Assembly (NCBI GenBank): GCA_945870025.1
Contig: CAMBQN010000004.1
Span: forward strand, 65,017-129,016
From: Akkermansia muciniphila
GTDB lineage: Bacteria; Verrucomicrobiota; Kiritimatiellia; RFP12; JAAYNR01
Length of the DNA stretch: 64,000 bases
Reading direction: 5' to 3'
Below the pieces are notes generated by a model. The model was given only the letters and a program-made list of their open reading frames with translations, was not told the origin of the DNA and did not search any database. Position numbers and translations under genes: made by a program. Each line of letters starts with the position of its first letter. Within the stretch, counting starts at the first letter, position 1. This document shows, one piece after another, positions 13,434 through 47,880 of this stretch.

Positions 13434-14321
13434 TTACCGCGAGGCGGCCCGACGGGCCGATTCCAGGGTGTTGTGCAGCAGCATGGTGATGGTCATGGGG
13501 CCGACGCCGCCGGGAACGGGCGTGATCCGCCCGGCGGTCTCGCACGCCGAGGCGAAATCCACGTCGCCGACGAGCCGGAAGCCGTTGCGGGCCGTCGCAT
13601 CGGGGATGCGGTTGACGCCCACGTCGATTACCGTCGCGCCCGGCTTGATCATGCTGCCGGTGACGGTTCCGGCGCGGCCGGCGGCGACCACGAGGATGTC
13701 GGCCTGGCGGGTGAAGGAGGCGAGGTCGCGCGTGCCGGTGTGGCAGACCGTGACCGTCGCATTGCCGCCGGGGGCCTTGCGCATCAGCAGATGCGCGACC
13801 GGCTTGCCGACGATGTTTGAGCGTCCGACGACCACGGCATGGCGGCCCGAGGTCTCGACGCCGCTGCGGATCAGCAGTTGGATAATGCCGTGCGGGGTGC
13901 AGGGGAGGTAGCACGGTTCGTCAATGAGCATCCGCCCGATGTTTACCGGCGTAAAGCCGTCCACATCCTTGGCGGGCGCAATGGCGTTGATCACGGCTTT
14001 CTCGTCAATGTGGCGCGGCAGCGGGAGCTGGACGAGAATGCCGTGGATGCGGGGGTCGGCGTTCATGCGGCCAACCTCGGCCAGCAAATCGGCCTGCGAG
14101 ATGTCAGGCGAGAGACGGCGATCCTCCGAGAACATTCCAGCCTCGGCGCAGGCCTTCTCCTTAGCGGTCACGTACGAGGCCGACGCGGGATCCTGTCCAA
14201 CCAGAATCACGCCAAGCCCCGGCGTCACGCCCGCGCTTGCCTGGAGTTCCGCCACCTGGCGCGCGATCTCCACGCGCATTTCCGCCGCCGCCTGCTTGCC
14301 GTCAATGATGATTGCGCTCAT
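13434..14321 (-). CDS. folD: Bifunctional methylenetetrahydrofolate dehydrogenase/cyclohydrolase
   Basis: MSAIIIDGKQAA..., VILVGQDPASASYVTAKEKAC, GILVQLPLP, VVVGRSNIVGKP and PVPGGVGPMTI. Start moved to ATG at 14321, 22 codons inside the ORF-track start. Confidence 0.93.
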   Translation of the reverse strand: MSAIIIDGKQAAAEMRVEIARQVAELQASAGVTPGLGVILVGQDPASASYVTAKEKACAEAGMFSEDRRLSPDISQADLLAEVGRMNADPRIHGILVQLPLPRHIDEKAVINAIAPAKDVDGFTPVNIGRMLIDEPCYLPCTPHGIIQLLIRSGVETSGRHAVVVGRSNIVGKPVAHLLMRKAPGGNATVTVCHTGTRDLASFTRQADILVVAAGRAGTVTGSMIKPGATVIDVGVNRIPDATARNGFRLVGDVDFASACETAGRITPVPGGVGPMTITMLLHNTLESARRAASR

Positions 14322-14348
14322 GGGGCACCTCTGAAAGATAAAGAAGTG

Positions 14349-14385
14349 GCGCTTGCAAAACCCATTTCGCCGGTTCTGCAAGCGC
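14349..14385. repeat. Solo family-A hairpin GCGCTTGCAAAACC-N9-GGTTCTGCAAGCGC
   Basis: 14-nt arms with one A/C (G:U on the other strand) mismatch. Located between the ferredoxin stop and the folD start. Confidence 0.8.
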
Positions 14386-14428
14386 ACGATTCAGATGCAG
14401 ACCGGCCGCAGCCGGCGGTACAGACGCC

Positions 14429-14602
14429 TCACGCGCCGGGTTCGATCGCATCGTTCGGGCACGCGCCCGTGCAGGCGCCGCAATCCACGCAGGTGTCGGC
14501 GTCGATCACGAATTTGGGGTCGCCCTCGCTGATTGCTTCAACCGGGCAGGAATCCTTGCACGCGCCGCAGCGGGTGCATTTGTCGGTAATGACGTAGGCC
14601 AT
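14429..14602 (-). CDS. 2x[4Fe-4S] ferredoxin (57 aa)
   Basis: MAYVITDKCTRCGACKDSCP...CVDCGACTGACP contains two CxxCxxCxxxCP motifs. Start taken at the MAYV methionine (14602). Confidence 0.85.
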   Translation of the reverse strand: MAYVITDKCTRCGACKDSCPVEAISEGDPKFVIDADTCVDCGACTGACPNDAIEPGA

Positions 14603-14739
14603 GATGTGTTTCCTTATGTTTGTCCCGAGCCGCCGATCCGGTCCCGCGGACAAACACGGGACACCCTGTGACGTGGGAAAGGCGAATATGATACCCGATT
14701 GGACCGCTTCGGGCAAGCAGAGGATTTTTAACAGCAGAG

Positions 14740-14902
14740 GCGCTTGCAAAACCTCCTTCGTCGGTTCTGCAAGCGCAGTATTCAGAAGTCAGTATTCAGA
14801 ATCAGAACCCTTTCTTGAGCAGGGTCTTATCCACATTCTGGTTCCTGACTTCTGTATTCTGACTTCTCTCTTGCAAACACCCCGGAGGGGTTTTGCAAGA
14901 GC
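14740..14902. mobile_element. Family-A composite palindromic (MITE-like) element, 163 bp, flanked by the 8-bp direct repeat CAGCAGAG
   Basis: The left end is a hairpin GCGCTTGCAAAACC-N9-GGTTCTGCAAGCGC (14740-14776). The interior is an imperfect inverted repeat built of ..TTCAG.. heptads (AGTATTCAGAAGTCAGTATTCAGAATCAGAACC ... GGTTCCTGACTTCTGTATTCTGACTTCT). The right end is a hairpin TCTTGCAAACACCCC-GGA-GGGGTTTTGCAAGAGC. The direct repeats are at 14732-14739 and 14905-14912. Confidence 0.75.
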
Positions 14903-14989
14903 CTCAGCAGAGATTTCGCTTAATTTTGCGCATAAGATATCGCTTCTTATACATGGCTGTGGCAAACTTACAGTTTTACAAGGAGCGCC

Positions 14990-16141
14990 ATGAATAAATC
15001 TGCACGTTTTCTGCTTCATGCCTTCGTTCTTCTAGCCGTCACCGTCGCGTTTGCTGGCGAGCGTGCGTGCGAGTGGACGAATGTCACCCGCATTGTGGCT
15101 GTCGGCGATGTCCATGGTGACTATGGGCAACTGGTCACATGCCTTCGGAACGCCGGCGTGATTACGGAAACCAACACGTGGGCCGGCGGGAAGACGCATC
15201 TCGTCCAAACCGGCGATATTCTTGATCGCGGCCCCAGCTCAAAGCAAGCCATGGATCTGCTGATGGCCCTTGAACCCCAGGCGGAACGGGCTGGCGGCAT
15301 GGTTCATCCGCTCCTGGGTAATCATGAGGCCATGGTGCTCGCCGGCGACTACTCGTATCTTGACCCGCACGAGGCGGACGCCTACGGCGGTCTGGACGAG
15401 TTCAAGAAGAGCATGGCGGCGGAAGGAAAATACGGTCAATGGATCCGCGGACACCAGGCGATCATCCGGATTAACGACATTCTCTTTGTGCACGGCGGAA
15501 TCACCGGCACGCAGACGAACCGGTCGCTCGCGGAAATCAACGCGCGGGCCGCAGCCGCACTCGGCCCACGCGATGTGACCAAAGCCGGCGATTCCATCGA
15601 GGTTCTTTGGTGCCGTGATCTCGCCTTGGCTCCGAAGGCGGATCTGGAGTCCATGCTCGCGCCGGTTTTCCGTAAGTATGACGTGAGACATGTCGTGATT
15701 GGGCATACCGTAGTCAAGAATCCGCCGCGCATCAAGAGCCGTCTGCAAGGCGCCGTCATCCTGATTGATGTCGGCATGTCGCGCACCTACAGGGGCGGCC
15801 CCGCAATCTGCCTGCTCATCGAGAACGGTACGTTTTCGGCCGTTAGCGACGAGGGCAAGACCGAGATCGAGACGGAAGCGCAAGGCGAAACCTTCGCTCA
15901 AGAAGGCGGATTTCGTGAGAAGCTGACCGCCATCCGTACCGAGGCCCGGGCGCTGGAAGAAAATGCTCCGGTCTGTCCCGAGTGCGGCAAGCCCATGAAA
16001 CGCCGCACGGCCAAAGCCGGCTCGAACGCGGGTCACGATTTTTGGGGCTGCACCGGCTATCCGGCGTGCAAGGGGGTGCGGAAGATCGAGCGACCGGAAT
16101 CGACCGGAACGACAGGTGGCGAGAACACCGCTAACCGCTAG
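14990..16141 (+). CDS. Signal-peptide PPP-type metallophosphoesterase fused to a C-terminal topoisomerase-type C4 zinc ribbon
   Basis: Signal-like N-terminus MNKSARFLLHAFVLLAVTVAFAG. PPP motifs GDVHGD, GDILDRG, GNHE. C-terminus CPECGKPMKRRTAKAGSNAGHDFWGCTGYPACKG follows the zf-C4_Topoisom pattern. Confidence 0.8.
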   Translation: MNKSARFLLHAFVLLAVTVAFAGERACEWTNVTRIVAVGDVHGDYGQLVTCLRNAGVITETNTWAGGKTHLVQTGDILDRGPSSKQAMDLLMALEPQAERAGGMVHPLLGNHEAMVLAGDYSYLDPHEADAYGGLDEFKKSMAAEGKYGQWIRGHQAIIRINDILFVHGGITGTQTNRSLAEINARAAAALGPRDVTKAGDSIEVLWCRDLALAPKADLESMLAPVFRKYDVRHVVIGHTVVKNPPRIKSRLQGAVILIDVGMSRTYRGGPAICLLIENGTFSAVSDEGKTEIETEAQGETFAQEGGFREKLTAIRTEARALEENAPVCPECGKPMKRRTAKAGSNAGHDFWGCTGYPACKGVRKIERPESTGTTGGENTANR

Positions 16142-21919: not shown

Positions 21920-23356
21920 ATGAATAGTCGCATGGAAAAGGCGGGCGCGGATGTGCCTGAACAGGTGGCTGCTGCGCTCAACGCGGGCAGTCTGCTGGAG
22001 GGCGTGTGTCGGCTCGGCGTGGCGGTTTCGGGTGGCGCCGACTCCGTGGCGATGCTGCATCTGCTGACTCCGGTGTGCCGTCGGCAACGCATCACCCTGG
22101 TGGCTCTGCATCTGAATCACGGGTTGCGCGGTGTGGCGTCGGATGGTGACGCGGCTTTTGTGCGGACGTTATGCGCCCGGCTGGGCATCGTCAGTGTGGT
22201 CGGTCGTGTGCGCGGGCTGGATGGCAAACGCCCAAAGCGGCGCGGGGCGTGTCAGTCGCTGGAAATGGCGGCACGCGCGGCGCGGCAGGCGTTCTTCCGG
22301 CGGGTGGCCCAAAGGCATCGGCTCGATGCGGTAGCCGTCGCGCATCACCGCGACGACGTGGCCGAGACGGTGTTGCTGCGGCTGATGCGGGGCGCCGGGG
22401 CGGCTGGTTTGTCAGGGATGCGGCCGAGAGCGATGGTGGACGGACTGCTGGTGATCCGTCCGCTACTGGGCATCGCCCGCGAGGCTTTGCGCGCGTGGAT
22501 GAGGCTTCATAACGAGGTCTGGCGCGACGATGCGAGCAACACCGATATCTCCATTCCTCGCAATCGCGTGCGGACGTCTGTGTTGCCTTTTCTGGAAGAG
22601 ACGTTTGGATCCGGGGTCGTCGGCGGACTGGCCCAATCGGCGGATCTGCTGCGCGAAGACGATGCGGCGCTGGATGCGCTGGCGGCCGATGCCCAGACGG
22701 CAACGTGCGCCGGGACGGGATTGATCGCCGACCGGCTGATGCCACTGCCGGCGGCGCTGCGGCGTCGGGTGGTGTACCGGTGGATGCTGGATCGCGGCGG
22801 GGCGGCGGCGGCCACATTCGAGACGGTTCGCCGGGTGCTGGAGAAGCTCGCGGAGGGAAGTCGCCGTTGGCGGCTCGCGGCTGGCGGAGGCATTCGAATC
22901 GGCTACCGGGAGGGTGTGCTATCAACCGATACCGGCGGGCCGGTAAAGGTTAAGCTGAACACGCGTTTTCTCCGGAGGAACGGCACGGTCATGGTGGGTG
23001 ATCTGCGTGTGACGGTTCGGCCGGCGGTTCGGATTGTGCGGGAAGGCGGGCCTGTGGGGCGCATGCCCGCGCAGTGTACGATCAGCGCCGAAGCGGTTCG
23101 AGGCAAGCGGCTGGCGGTGCGCTGCCGCAGACCGGGCGACCGGATCGCGCCGCTTGGAATGTCCGGCAGTCGCAAGGTTCAGGACGTGCTGGCCGACGCA
23201 AAAATCCCTGTCGAACGGCGCGACAGGGTGCCGCTGCTCGTCTGCGGGAACGAGGTGGTCTGGATACCGGGCTACCGCGTCGCCACGCGATTCGCCGTAC
23301 CCAGCCCCACCGCTCCCGCACTGCTGATCAGGGTTGCTAAGACTAGAGGCGCTTGA
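21920..23356 (+). CDS. tilS: tRNA(Ile)-lysidine synthetase
   Basis: PP-loop VAVSGGADSVAMLHLL, then HLNHGLRG and AHHRDD. The start is uncertain (GTG 21875, ATG 21920 or ATG 21932). The last three codons and the TGA stop lie inside a repeat element (see findings). Confidence 0.85.
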   Translation: MNSRMEKAGADVPEQVAAALNAGSLLEGVCRLGVAVSGGADSVAMLHLLTPVCRRQRITLVALHLNHGLRGVASDGDAAFVRTLCARLGIVSVVGRVRGLDGKRPKRRGACQSLEMAARAARQAFFRRVAQRHRLDAVAVAHHRDDVAETVLLRLMRGAGAAGLSGMRPRAMVDGLLVIRPLLGIAREALRAWMRLHNEVWRDDASNTDISIPRNRVRTSVLPFLEETFGSGVVGGLAQSADLLREDDAALDALAADAQTATCAGTGLIADRLMPLPAALRRRVVYRWMLDRGGAAAATFETVRRVLEKLAEGSRRWRLAAGGGIRIGYREGVLSTDTGGPVKVKLNTRFLRRNGTVMVGDLRVTVRPAVRIVREGGPVGRMPAQCTISAEAVRGKRLAVRCRRPGDRIAPLGMSGSRKVQDVLADAKIPVERRDRVPLLVCGNEVVWIPGYRVATRFAVPSPTAPALLIRVAKTRGA

Positions 23357-23474
23357 AAAACCCCTGCAAGCGCCGGTTTCAGGTTTCAGTGTTCAGGTTT
23401 CAGGAAGACGCAACATCGTGTGGTTCTTCCTGACACCTGAACTCTCCGCTTGCAAAACAGGGTTTTGCAAGCGG
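23348..23474. repeat. Family-A composite element filling the whole tilS / 599-aa-gene convergent spacer
   Basis: GGCGCTTGAAAAACCCCTGCAAGCGCC, then (GTTTCAG)x4 ... GGTTCTTCCTGACACCTGAAC, then a perfect 13-bp hairpin CCGCTTGCAAAAC-AGG-GTTTTGCAAGCGG (23446-23474). Confidence 0.8.
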
Positions 23475-23478
23475 CTCA

Positions 23479-25254
23479 CTACTTAATCTCTTTCGCGCCT
23501 TTGGCTGCTGGCGCCTCCTCTGCAACATCATCGCCATCGCCTTCACCCTCGTCATCGATGGTGGCGTTCATACCTTCAGAGGGATTGACCGCCTTGAAGA
23601 TCGCGGTCAAGGAGGTGATTTCAGATGTCGTGATCAGGATGGCCGATTCGGACTGTCCGCCGGTGGCCCACTCGGCCATGACGACGCCATCGCCGGTCGG
23701 AAGAGCGGATGCCGCTTCGGCGGGGACGACGTGGGTCATGGTCAGAATGACCTTGGCGATCCCTGACAGGGAGAGGCGGCTGATCACAAAGGGAGCGGAC
23801 GCCGGCGCGAGCAGTTGTGTGATGCGATTCGCCTCGACGGAGGGTTTTACTGGCGTATCGATCCGGTCGATGACCTGCTCAACCATCGCGGGCGCGCCCA
23901 TGCCGAAGGCGAGGGTCTTTCCTTTTGCCGCATACTCATAGCCCGGTTCCATCAGCTTCATCATGATGCGCATGGGCTTGAGTCCGGCTTGCATGGCCTC
24001 ATCGAGGTCTTTCGGATCCAGATTGGCGGGCATCTGGTCACGGAGCAGCTTCTTGAATCCATCTTCGTCGAGCGCGGTTTTGAATGTATGGATCTTCACA
24101 TCCTTGTACGTGCGTACGACGGGAGCGGGCATCTTCATGGCGGACTGCTGCATAAGGGCTGCGAACACCGGCTTTTTCATCATCGCCAATTGCTCATTCA
24201 GATAGGTCTCAGCCTGGGGCATGCCCATCATTCCCTGAACCAGAATGGCGTTCGTGCGGCAGTTGGCGGTGAGGGCGAGCGGGGCGCCGATGGCGCGCAG
24301 GGACTGATCGAACAGCTCCGCAAGATCCTTCGCCTCGACCGTAGCGAGACCGGGCGAGAGACGCATCATCGACGTATACAGGTCGACGATCTGCTTGCGC
24401 AGGGTCGCGGGGAACGTGTAGCTACCAGCCGCGCAACGGAACAGTCCGTCTCCATCCATGACCGTCAGGTATTCGGGGGTGACGGGCTTGGCCGAAGCGA
24501 GCAGGGCGGCGATGTCGGAGTCCTTGACCGGGGTGACCCGTGAGCGGATGGCGAGGCCATCACGCTGCACGGCGATGCCGATTTGCATGGCCTCGATCTG
24601 TCCGAGCACCTGGCCATAAAAATCAAAGAGCGCCTCCATGGACTGCTGGGTCTGTTTGGCGTTGGGCAGGCCCGACTCCGACAGGCCGGCGAAAGCCGTC
24701 GTCTTGAAGTGGTTGATCATCGGCTTCATGGCGGCTGGGAAGACCACCACGCGGATCGTTCCCGGGATGGAGGGTAGCGACGGCAAAGCGGGAGCGTTCG
24801 TACCTGCGCACGCTTCGAGATCGGCGGCCTTGGGAGCGAAGAGTACACGGGTTCCGACCACGCGGGCGGCACCCCCATTAAAGACATACACACCATTGAC
24901 GGGTGCAGGGAGTTTGCCTTCATTGCCGATGATCGCCTGAAGATAGGCGGAAGCGTTCGTGCCCACCGGGGTGAGTTCCATGATAAAGCCCGTCTTAGCG
25001 TTGCCGACATCGAAGATGTGTAAGGCCACCGGTTGGTCGGGATTGATTTGGGCAGCCCCTGGGAGCGACATCGTGAGCATCATCGGCATGGCGCCGAGCT
25101 GGGGGGCTTTAAAGACTTCGGCGCCCAGAAAAAGCTGCTTTTGGAGAGAGGCGTAGCTCTCAACATAAACAGAACAGATGCGGGTTGCGGCAGACGAGAC
25201 GAGAGGGAGGATTGCGCAAAGCGCGATGGTGAACAGGTGGAAGAGGCGGGTCAT
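23479..25254 (-). CDS. Secreted hypothetical protein (~591 aa) with an acidic C-terminal tail
   Basis: Signal peptide MTRLFHLFTIALCAILPLVSSAA. Long ORF with normal composition and no recognised domain. Tail is DDEGEGDGDDVAEE. Confidence 0.6.
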   Translation of the reverse strand: MTRLFHLFTIALCAILPLVSSAATRICSVYVESYASLQKQLFLGAEVFKAPQLGAMPMMLTMSLPGAAQINPDQPVALHIFDVGNAKTGFIMELTPVGTNASAYLQAIIGNEGKLPAPVNGVYVFNGGAARVVGTRVLFAPKAADLEACAGTNAPALPSLPSIPGTIRVVVFPAAMKPMINHFKTTAFAGLSESGLPNAKQTQQSMEALFDFYGQVLGQIEAMQIGIAVQRDGLAIRSRVTPVKDSDIAALLASAKPVTPEYLTVMDGDGLFRCAAGSYTFPATLRKQIVDLYTSMMRLSPGLATVEAKDLAELFDQSLRAIGAPLALTANCRTNAILVQGMMGMPQAETYLNEQLAMMKKPVFAALMQQSAMKMPAPVVRTYKDVKIHTFKTALDEDGFKKLLRDQMPANLDPKDLDEAMQAGLKPMRIMMKLMEPGYEYAAKGKTLAFGMGAPAMVEQVIDRIDTPVKPSVEANRITQLLAPASAPFVISRLSLSGIAKVILTMTHVVPAEAASALPTGDGVVMAEWATGGQSESAILITTSEITSLTAIFKAVNPSEGMNATIDDEGEGDGDDVAEEAPAAKGAKEIK

Positions 25255-25439: not shown

Positions 25440-25505
25440 CAGTCGTCTGTGGTCGTAAAAAGTACCATACTCGACAGGGGTCTGCAAGCCAATCCCCCGA
25501 CAGCC

Positions 25506-25647
25506 CAGCAATTCTAATTATGACAGCCGCTATCGGGATCCAAATCGTGATCGGGACCGAAATCGACGAGAAAGCAAGGAATTCGACCCCGATAGCGATA
25601 GCGATTTCGATTTCGACTGTACGGATGTGCCATAATTAGAATTGCTG
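25506..25647. mobile_element. Family-B MITE-like element, copy B1 (142 bp), with 17-bp TIRs and a 9-bp flanking direct repeat
   Basis: TIRs are CAGCAATTCTAATTATG (25506-25522) and CATAATTAGAATTGCTG (25631-25647), a perfect inverted repeat. CCGACAGCC occurs immediately outside both ends (25497-25505 and 25648-25656). The interior holds CGAT-based hexamer arrays around a GGAATTC core. Confidence 0.85.
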
Positions 25648-25658
25648 CCGACAGCCAA

Positions 25659-37892: not shown

Positions 37893-38774
37893 ATGCGTGT
37901 AGCGAGGCGGGGCTGGAATCACCGCGTGCGGTTCATGCAACTGCTGGCTGGCGTCATGCTCGCCGCGTTGCAGGGATATGCCGGAGACGGGTCGGCGGAT
38001 CGGGTGCGGCTGATTGCCGATCGTGATGCGGTTACGCCCGGCGCGTCGTTCACGTTGGCGGTCGAGTTGCAAACCCAGCCCGGCTGGCACACCTATTGGC
38101 TGAACCCGGGTGACGCGGGGCTTCCGCCGACGCTGCGCTGGCGTCTGCCCGAAGGGGTTCGTCTATCCCGTCTGCAATTTCCAACGCCTGCGCGGTTTGA
38201 AGAAGCGGGAATGGTGTCGTTCGGCTATGAAGACCGGGTGTGGCTGCTGGCCGATTTTGAAGTCGGAGGCGGCTTCACCGGAGATAAGATGGAAATAGGT
38301 CTGGCCGCCAACTGGATGGTCTGCCGCGAGGCCTGCATGCAAAAAAAGGGAGAAGCGCAGGTCGCCCTGATCGTCGCCGCAGAGGCTCCCACCCAAACAA
38401 ACGCAACGACCGCAGCCGATTTCGCCCGCTGGCGGGACCGGTTGCCAAAGTCCGTTCCCGGCTGGACAGCGCGCGCGCAATCCGAACGGAAAGGATTACG
38501 GCTCCGGATCGAGCCGCCAGCGGGATCGGGACCGGAGGCGGCGGCGTGGGCCCGGGCGCAGTTCTATCCACTCCAGCGCGACGCGATCGAGCTTCCGGCC
38601 GCACAAAAGTGGCGGCGTGACGGCGCCGGTTGGGAAGCCCTGCTGCGATCCGGCCCCAAGCCATTCAAAGGGGGAGACGTGGTGGAAGGGGTTTTGGTCG
38701 TGTCGGCTGCAACGGGCGGCGATGCGAGCACCCCACGCGCGTGGCTGGTGCAGGCCACGGTCGAGGGGAAATAG
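37893..38774 (+). CDS. Periplasmic protein with DsbD-N-terminal/DsbC-like thiol-disulfide domain
   Basis: Signal-like N-terminus, then GWHTYWLNPGDAGLPPTLRW...FPTPARF...ANWMVCREACM, resembling the DsbD alpha-domain family. Function not certain. Confidence 0.6.
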   Translation: MRVARRGWNHRVRFMQLLAGVMLAALQGYAGDGSADRVRLIADRDAVTPGASFTLAVELQTQPGWHTYWLNPGDAGLPPTLRWRLPEGVRLSRLQFPTPARFEEAGMVSFGYEDRVWLLADFEVGGGFTGDKMEIGLAANWMVCREACMQKKGEAQVALIVAAEAPTQTNATTAADFARWRDRLPKSVPGWTARAQSERKGLRLRIEPPAGSGPEAAAWARAQFYPLQRDAIELPAAQKWRRDGAGWEALLRSGPKPFKGGDVVEGVLVVSAATGGDASTPRAWLVQATVEGK

Positions 38775-38870
38775 AGGTACTTGCAAAACGCCTCGTGACA
38801 GCCGAGACCTTTTTTCTCCCCAACACCATTACGGTATGTCCAAGACGAATGTGTTGACTGAATACTCAAA

Positions 38871-47660: not shown

Positions 47661-47880
47661 CAAGGAATCAGGGAATGCGCGAAGCGGGTAGGGCAGCGGC
47701 GTCCCCGCTGAAGAGAAAAGCTGAAAGCTGAAAGGCGCTTCGTGCAAGGGATCAGGAAAAGCGCGAAGCGAGGTAGGGCGACGGCGTCCCCGCTGAAGAG
47801 AAAAGCTGAAAACTGAAAAGCTGAAAACGGAAAGGCGCTGCGCGCAAGGGATCAGGGTCAGCGAGAAGCGATGTAGACGC
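47661..47880. repeat. Tandem family-A-like units (84 bp, 100 bp and a partial unit) containing (GCTGAAA)n heptad arrays
   Basis: Unit 1 is 47661-47744 and unit 2 is 47745-47844. Both read CAAGGRATCAGG..GCGCGAAGCG.GGTAGGGC..CGGCGTCCCCGCTGAAGAGAAAAGCTGAAA...GGCGCT.CG.G, with 2 versus 4 heptads. A 17-bp inverted partner of AGGGCGACGGCGTCCCC (47775-47791) lies at 47923-47939. Confidence 0.8.

Follow-up and report, generated by a model that had tools for sequence, protein, structure and literature searches.

A palindromic element of 169 bp lies in a stretch of 64,000 nucleotides from Akkermansia muciniphila (GTDB lineage Kiritimatiellia; assembly GCA_945870025.1, contig CAMBQN010000004.1, positions 65,017 to 129,016), which is called the window throughout. 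The element is probably one copy of a family of miniature inverted-repeat transposable elements (MITEs), that is, of non-autonomous DNA transposons. The family has terminal inverted repeats (TIRs) and makes target-site duplications (TSDs) of 4-5 bp, the corresponding sites are found empty in sister genomes, and the same ends enclose unrelated interiors; this combination argues for a MITE family rather than for repetitive extragenic palindromes (REPs) moved by a REP-associated tyrosine transposase (RAYT) or for a transcription terminator. The family itself is new and belongs to a known kind. It rises above the routine in that its ends are shaped as hairpins, its interiors share heptad words with cassettes of PF05635 genes, and it has no recognisable helper. 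No sequence similarity to anything annotated was found, nor any mention in the literature searched of the repeat or of MITEs in these phyla.

A dispersed family with common ends

The genome from which the window comes (G000) comprises 2.76 Mb in 59 contigs, with 62% G+C. The first-pass annotation of the window had singled out a 14-mer, GCGCTTGCAAAACC, and proposed a genome-wide search for it. Confinement of the 14-mer to the window, which the first pass had named as a refuting outcome, is not what the search shows: at up to two mismatches, G000 has 239 matches (41 of them exact), the window alone has 9 where 0.69 are expected, and the exact terminal 16-mer recurs in several other genomes of the class. 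BLAST searches with half-elements place the family at ∼97 loci in G000. Subfamily A, which includes the element of the window, is ∼175 bp long and has ∼12 full copies, with a left-cap loop of 9 nt. Subfamily B is ∼146 bp long and has ∼50 full copies, with arms of GGTKTCA words, and the remaining loci are fragments. Element sizes range from 132 to 184 bp. Copies are held by the ends of contigs C12, C30, C46, C47, C49 and C52, and the family therefore breaks the assembly.

The outermost 16-17 bp form the TIR, GAGGC[G/T]CTTGCAAAAC, which subfamilies A, B and C share at their two ends; GAGGCKCTTGCAAAAC is the repeat word of the element ends. Behind each terminal repeat stands its complement, which turns each end into a hairpin, referred to below as a TTGCAA cap. 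Some sub-lineages have changes in the cap stem that are compensated on the opposite strand of the stem: GCACCTGCAAAACC...GGTTTTGCAGGTGC at C17:37775, CCGCGTGC...GCACGCGG at C5:8638 and CCGCCTGC...GCAGGCGG at C2:63348. These are individual examples; as pairing is kept in them through compensatory changes, the hairpin form of the ends probably matters for propagation. Caps also occur alone, as units of ∼40-46 bp running from GAG to CTC (C18:48557-48602; also loci L070 and L110).

Target-site duplications and empty sites

Perfect 4-bp duplications flank 27 of the 51 full copies in G000, and 4 more copies have a 5-bp duplication. Over all retrieved loci, 63 duplications of four and 10 of five base pairs are perfect, which amounts to 73 of 119 unique elements (61%), compared with 0/126 in a shifted-flank control. 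The duplicated bases differ from copy to copy. The target reconstructed from them is palindromic, T-N-W-Y-[NNNN]-R-W-N-A, with T at a frequency of 0.62 at position -4, Y (C/T) of 0.88 at -1, R (G/A) of 0.80 at +4 (the first base past the duplication) and A of 0.63 at +7.

Four sister genomes of the same genus (G001-G004, making five genomes in all with G000) hold such sites without the element. When the flanks of 17 insertions were joined, with the 4-bp duplication present only once, and used as queries, ungapped matches were obtained at more than 10 loci, in G003, G004, G002 and G001. At the nucleotide level, the empty sites carry exactly one copy of the duplicated bases: a filled site reading GGATAACA-element-AACAGGCAAGG corresponds to an empty GGATAACAGGCAAGG, and a filled TATAAGT-element-AAGTGACC corresponds to an empty TATAAGTGACC. 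These empty sites therefore demonstrate insertion directly, and the first-pass reading, a family of repeats scattered by insertion, is borne out by them and by the TSDs.

Transposition has clearly been recent. Identity of subfamily-B copies to their consensus is 97-100%, and G003 and G004 contain identical copies; flank identity between the genomes is only 80-97%. One copy in G004 is inserted within another, with the TSD AATA. The majority of the insertions of G000 have an unoccupied counterpart in G004 or G003; since this holds for most of them in G004, the closest relative, many insertions postdate the separation of these two genomes.

Anatomy of the window copy

BLAST against G000 and an alignment of 13 copies set the bounds of the element, which starts with GAG and ends with CTC (Table 1). 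The first-pass annotation had placed it at 14732-14912, where the composite palindrome is real and the limits are slightly too wide. It had also reported an 8-bp flanking direct repeat, CAGCAGAG, which comes apart on inspection. The left copy consists of a C, the TSD AGCA and the element's own GAG, while the right copy consists of the last C of the element's CTC, AGCA and a GAG that the flank holds by chance, leaving a TSD of 4 bp.

The arrangement of four 14-mer copies as -> <- ... -> <- described in the first pass is found, with the exact 14-mer at 14740-14753, its complement with one mismatch at 14763-14776, and a second, more degenerate pair at 14868-14882 and 14887-14901. So is the longer imperfect inverted repeat of 7-bp units in the interior, whose inner arms (14776-14802 and 14835-14861) are 81% complementary, with 7-nt units and periods of 7 and 14. 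Complementarity between the terminal arms, 14734-14753 and 14889-14908, reaches 90%. Single-stranded, the element is expected to form three hairpins, namely the two caps and a central heptad stem, closed by pairing of GAGG with CCTC. Folding, which had been suggested as a check, gives a predicted -79.7 kcal/mol for the RNA (z = -9.0 against shuffles) and -43.1 kcal/mol for the DNA (z = -8.9). There is no coding capacity: only spurious open reading frames (ORFs) of the kind met in a 62% G+C genome cross the element.

The element is present at the orthologous site in G004, with the same AGCA and an additional 63-bp duplicated left end. In G001-G003, similarity to this locus ends a few bases short of the element.

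Table 1. Coordinates of the element, its parts, its neighbours and its relatives in the window
Feature	Position	Strand	Basis or remark
Left TSD copy, AGCA	14733-14736	.	4 bp identical to those after the right end
Subfamily-A element (probable MITE), 169 bp	14737-14905	+	BLAST and 13-copy alignment; ortholog at same site with same TSD in G004
Left cap hairpin: GAGGCGCTTGCAAAACC, 9-nt loop, complement GGTTCTGCAAGCGC	14737-14776	+	14-nt stem, 93% complementary
Left arm of heptads (units CAGTATT / CAGAAGT; periods of 7 and 14 nt)	14776-14805	+	Inverted- and direct-repeat scan; word set shared with PF05635 arms in G004 (L022)
Loop or spacer between the two heptad arms	14806-14834	+	Alignment and folding
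Right arm of heptads (units CTGACTT), complement of the left one	14835-14867	+	Repeat scan
Right cap hairpin: CTCTTGCAAACACCC, 4-nt loop, GGGGTTTTGCAAGAG and CCTC	14868-14905	+	Outer arm is the right terminal repeat
Right TSD copy, AGCA	14906-14909	.	Matches 14733-14736
Ferredoxin gene fdx, 57 aa, 2x[4Fe-4S]	14429-14602	-	
folD	13434-14321	-	
Metallophosphoesterase gene	14990-16141	+	
Old truncated left half of a subfamily-A element (cap and heptad remnant)	14346-14395	+	85% identity to 14733-14786; between fdx stop and folD start
132-bp copy of subfamily B that takes up the spacer of a convergent gene pair	23346-23477	-	TSD ACTA at 23342-23345 and 23478-23481
Likely 21-bp family scar: left terminal repeat with 2 mismatches (GAGGTACTTGCAAAAC) fused directly to GCCTC	38775-38795	+	Starts within the TAG stop of ORF 37893-38774

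Position relative to genes

A rough gene call made for this analysis (1,823 ORFs, 85.5% coding) allowed the copies to be placed relative to genes. Of 55 full copies, 24 have an end no more than 7 nt away from a predicted stop codon, and no copy abuts a start within that distance. The occupied spacers include tandem, convergent and divergent ones. With ends of GAG...CTC, insertion behind T or TA re-forms TGA or TAG, as at C23:2063, where the junction reads AAGT/GAGG and the empty site in G003 reads AAGTGACC. The placement at stop codons would reflect a preference for AT-richer targets in a 62% G+C genome, together with selection against harmful insertions.

Signals of another kind were sought around the element. 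No terminator-like site (a G+C-rich hairpin followed by a T run) was found on either strand between 14250 and 15050, and the Rfam covariance models, proposed as a check by the first-pass annotation, gave no match at E <= 1 over 14000-15300.

Distribution in other genomes

The consensus of subfamily B matches 16 of 41 relatives. The exact 17-mer terminus is found more widely, in many metagenome-assembled genomes (MAGs) of the Planctomycetes-Verrucomicrobia-Chlamydiae (PVC) group, mostly of lake and sediment origin: in Kiritimatiellia and in bins labelled Lentisphaerales, Victivallales, Verrucomicrobiota, 'Akkermansia sp.' and Neomarinimicrobiota. In these genomes it caps elements of 110-190 bp with mutually unrelated interiors, some built of heptads and others of GC-rich hairpin modules. 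A count of the exact terminal 16-mer in 151 genomes of the class gave 13-71 copies per genome in 7 genomes from five families and 0-4 in the others, against 0-1 for a reversed-pattern control. A patchy distribution, together with one terminal repeat for many interiors, points to the terminus of a mobile element and not to a host signal. All 113 GTDB loci with the exact 17-mer are MITEs or chance matches. Viral contigs gave 79 single matches, which is the level expected by chance, and plasmids gave no match.

Some larger structures carry the same caps. Non-coding elements of 504 and 645 bp with these hairpin ends were seen in two genomes (G104 C51:79-723, L337; starts of contigs in G104 and G064, L326-L335), and many contigs of G104 and G064 start 80-140 bp inside such a capped element. 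In G012, a unit of ∼1.77 kb, made up of a gene for a 315-aa secreted protein and a TTGCAA-capped element, is repeated in tandem at least 3-4 times (C4:68000-79000, L184), and a 559-bp unit with one cap is present four times in tandem (C11:238800-241500, L185).

Heptad interiors and PF05635 genes

Genes of family PF05635 (23S rRNA intervening-sequence protein, a four-helix bundle) were found in 11/11 genomes searched. The three in G000 (C7:37180-37491, C14:30009-30320 and C25:30072-30383) each lie between inverted arrays of a private 6-7-nt word: GGCTGTRAG, GTTCTTRG and GATCCC/GATTTC. In two sister genomes the words are those of the capped elements: the arms beside a PF05635 gene of G001 (L020) consist of GGTKTCA words, as in subfamily B, and those beside a gene of G004 (L022) of AGAAGTC/AGAATTC/AGGAGTC, as in subfamily A. 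None of the gene-bearing PF05635 cassettes examined has TTGCAA caps, no gene was found inside the capped elements, many heptad arrays of G000 are uncapped, and caps without heptads occur in other genomes. The caps are thus probably the transposon ends and the heptad hairpin captured passenger DNA, although the presence of heptad hairpins in both subfamilies of this genus is odd under random capture.

A third design with caps and short-period arms was noted in G002 (C24 and C127; L066, L069), with GGCGCTAAGTTAAG...CTTAACTTAGCGCC caps and arms of GATTAC/TAATCG hexamers; hexamer arms of this type stand beside a PF05635 gene in G003 (C44, L027). A hairpin-bounded nuclease cassette of the DUF559/PD-(D/E)xK type was also considered and rejected: the remnant in G000 and the gene in G001 have no TTGCAA caps at their boundaries, only neighbouring MITE fragments.

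The missing helper and other points of difficulty

Several observations weigh against reading the family as MITEs. No autonomous partner was found. TIR pairs spaced 250-6000 bp apart in G000 enclose ordinary genes only and no transposase. In G012, a 99%-complete long-read genome with 66 terminal-repeat matches (4 for the control), all pairs at the scale of an insertion sequence (IS) are separate or truncated MITEs, again with no transposase enclosed; apart from MITEs and truncated copies, the terminal repeats there belong to tandem arrays. The terminal repeat is absent from the retrieved flanks of PF01609, PF13586, PF07592 and PF13546 matches in up to 41 genomes, most of them fragmented MAGs; rve, ISL3 and IS1380 types were outside this search. 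Matches to the four families do not track the presence of the elements either. Hairpin-shaped termini are, moreover, atypical for MITEs mobilised by DDE enzymes. Finally, two sites carry different subfamilies in G000 and G004. The site that holds a subfamily-B copy in G000 (C41:15569-15714) holds a subfamily-A copy in G004 (C335:5975-6144) with the same duplication, TGAG; the same difference is seen between C50:5073-5218 of G000 (B) and C257:1532-1699 of G004 (A), with the duplication AGAG, at a site that is empty in the more distant G003. Simple cut-and-paste transposition does not predict such differences with identical duplications. They could stem from reinsertion at a hot spot, or from replacement of the element already in place, which might be excised and the gap then repaired from another copy through the shared ends.

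Other candidates for an autonomous element led elsewhere. The long repeats and contig ends of G000 are paralogous gene clusters and not IS elements, and an IS4-like element of G012 has 21-bp inverted repeats unrelated to the family ends. An ISL3-like reading of the family itself, with GGCTCTT ends and an 8-bp duplication TCNNNNGA, was rejected, as the outer bases do not repeat.

Alternative explanations

The hairpin ends bring to mind REP-like sequences, and the first-pass annotation had named a known REP/BIME-type family with a RAYT, already described for this taxon, as an explanation that would refute its reading. The caps would then be REPs, the composites mosaic bacterial interspersed mosaic elements (BIMEs), and transposition by a Y1 (HUH) enzyme would pass through single-strand intermediates. 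Interiors that are mosaics of small hairpin modules, clearest in G012, fit this picture, as does the presence of Y1_Tnp genes in most family-carrying genomes. One lone TTGCAA terminal repeat even lies at G000 C1:135988, ∼190 bp upstream of an IS200-like Y1 gene, with no right partner. It is the only copy of the family repeat found in the flanks of PF01797 (Y1) genes, however. That gene (C1:136192-136647, 151 aa; region C1:135988-136760) has inverted palindromes of its own, CCCAGGGTTGCCGCAACGCGGCTACCCTGGG, which are not dispersed, and the Y1 gene at G012 C8:57452 likewise has private, non-dispersed palindromes. Genome content agrees: G037 has elements and no Y1 match, whereas G015 has 33 Y1 matches and no elements. 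Y1 enzymes (IS200/IS605, RAYT) make no target-site duplications, and the variable 4-5-bp duplications and clean empty sites of the family are unlike their products, leaving this explanation very improbable. Little better placed is the idea that the elements are structural or regulatory sequences of the host, such as hairpins at transcript ends, RNA stabilisers or protein-binding sites, which have spread by function. The predicted fold is very stable, nearly half of the copies examined lie directly past stop codons, and all five genomes of the genus retain the truncated fdx-folD cap at the same position, where G002 may show a compensated change. On the other hand, the hairpins are not followed by T runs, terminator-like sites and Rfam matches are lacking around the window copy, and spacers of every orientation are used. 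The stop-proximal placement follows from the AT-rich palindromic target preference, and copies whose sites are mostly empty in G004 or G003 are dispensable; a host function as the driving force is improbable.

A somewhat stronger case, still an unlikely one, can be made for an origin of the elements as worn-down, gene-less PF05635 heptad cassettes that are moved or copied as those are, with the TTGCAA hairpins as outer ends of the cassette. PF05635 genes of the genus do lie between inverted arrays of family-specific 6-7-nt words, two of these arrays share the word sets of subfamilies B and A, and chance capture would not be expected to place heptad hairpins in both. Yet the gene-bearing cassettes examined lack the caps, the boundary at the duplication is marked by caps and not by heptads, the same caps enclose heptad-free interiors elsewhere, and many heptad arrays of G000 have no caps.

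A model of transposition

If the elements are MITEs, a transposase supplied in trans would bind their terminal repeats. The short, fixed stagger and the palindromic target preference make a dimeric DDE-type enzyme the likeliest candidate. The enzyme would cut at GAG/CTC and join the ends to 4-nt staggered cuts in AT-richer DNA, which in a genome of 62% G+C would be found mostly just past stop codons. Ends of GAG...CTC imply that insertion after T or TA would rebuild a stop (TGA or TAG) and so leave the neighbouring gene unharmed. The interior would be passenger DNA, probably taken from the heptad arms beside small PF05635 genes of the genus. Any influence on neighbouring genes, through an RNA hairpin or through the end or stability of a transcript, would be secondary.

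A bolder version, which is doubtful at present, is that the TTGCAA-capped elements are the miniatures of an undescribed type of PVC transposon. Its ends would be recognised by their structure, as hairpins, by an enzyme outside the tested IS families; a 4-5-bp stagger at stop-proximal palindromes would rebuild the stop, interiors would be swapped by gap repair, and heptad arms would be picked up from PF05635 loci. If true, this pickup would link two orphan repeat systems.

Comparison with known systems

Bacterial MITEs with TIRs and TSDs include the Correia elements of Neisseria, RUP of Streptococcus pneumoniae, Nezha of Anabaena and Nostoc, and Chunjie of Geobacter. The family described here resembles them in its size of 100-200 bp, its lack of coding capacity, its TIRs and short TSD of fixed length, its dozens of intergenic copies, its long hairpin folds and its presence/absence polymorphism among close relatives. 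It differs from Correia and RUP, which duplicate TA, in duplicating 4-5 bp of variable sequence, and from all four in that each terminus is a hairpin and one terminal repeat serves many unrelated interiors in several PVC lineages. Helpers have been assigned to RUP, Nezha and Chunjie, in contrast with this family. With REP/BIME sequences and REPINs of Enterobacteria and Pseudomonas it shares extragenic palindromes, mosaics of hairpin modules, a high copy number and a frequent position just downstream of genes. Those systems make no TSD and the RAYT gene is flanked by the same REPs, whereas the present family duplicates its target and the Y1 flanks are unrelated.

The closest likeness of the interiors is to the PF05635 heptad arms of sister genomes, which use the same 7-nt word sets as the arms of subfamilies A and B. 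Those cassettes hold a gene and no TTGCAA caps, unlike the capped elements, which are gene-less and, in other genomes, heptad-free. The heptad-armed PF05635 cassette is not a published family; heptanucleotide repeats have reportedly been noted in Geobacter metallireducens.

Related loci and neighbouring genes in the window

The first-pass annotation listed several relatives of the element, and these turned out to be of different kinds. The locus it gave as 23348-23474 is a true copy of subfamily B, whose terminal repeat contains the stop codon of the upstream ORF (23354-23356). The solo hairpin at 14349-14385 also belongs to the family, as an old truncated left half of subfamily A; it is found at the same position in 5/5 genomes of the genus, and G001 and G002 have kept more of its heptads. 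The half-sites suggested at ∼38783 and ∼25478 differ in status. The former is likely a scar of the family, as GCCTC represents the last 5 nt of the right end and a scar-like 16-mer is expected by chance an estimated ∼0.03 times in 64 kb; it may be the remnant of an internal deletion or of an excision. The latter is not a family member and flanks a copy (25497-25656) of another MITE family, with CCAGCAATTCTAA ends. The tandem units at 47661-47880 do not belong to the family either: they have no TTGCAA caps, gave no BLAST match with halves of A and B, and form a separate heptad family. Each of the two ∼110-bp units there combines heptads (AAAGCTG) with a GGCGTCCCCGC module and the motif GGCGCT..TGCAAGGG.

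The ferredoxin gene is indeed bracketed by two family-A loci, as had been pointed out. The loci differ greatly in age, and the order of fdx and folD, conserved in 5/5 genomes of the genus, is ancestral. The bracketing is therefore coincidental, and ferredoxin as the cargo of a composite transposon was rejected. On the minus strand, a distance of 20 nt separates the left end of the element from a predicted promoter-like site for fdx (TTGCCC, 17 nt, TATCAT; 14716-14688). In G001 (C72, L035), a copy of the other MITE family of the window, with CCAGCAATTCTAA ends and hexamer arms as at 25497-25656, lies upstream of the fdx promoter at nearly the spot that the family-A element occupies in G000 and G004.

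Implications

The results provide exact rules, in terms of ends, duplication and target preference, for an assembly-breaking repeat that occupies ∼97 loci in a 2.8-Mb genome. Similar numbers are found in scattered MAGs of Kiritimatiellia, Lentisphaerae-like bacteria and Verrucomicrobia. The family is an abundant one of freshwater Kiritimatiellia and other PVC bacteria. Gene calling is affected, because the terminal repeats supply or rebuild stop codons (e.g. 23354-23356 and 38772-38776). A helper that was not found in a lineage with clearly recent activity constitutes a defined problem. The dated insertion polymorphisms can be used for strain tracking in lake metagenomes, and the heptad words in common give a concrete lead on the spread of heptad-repeat hairpins.

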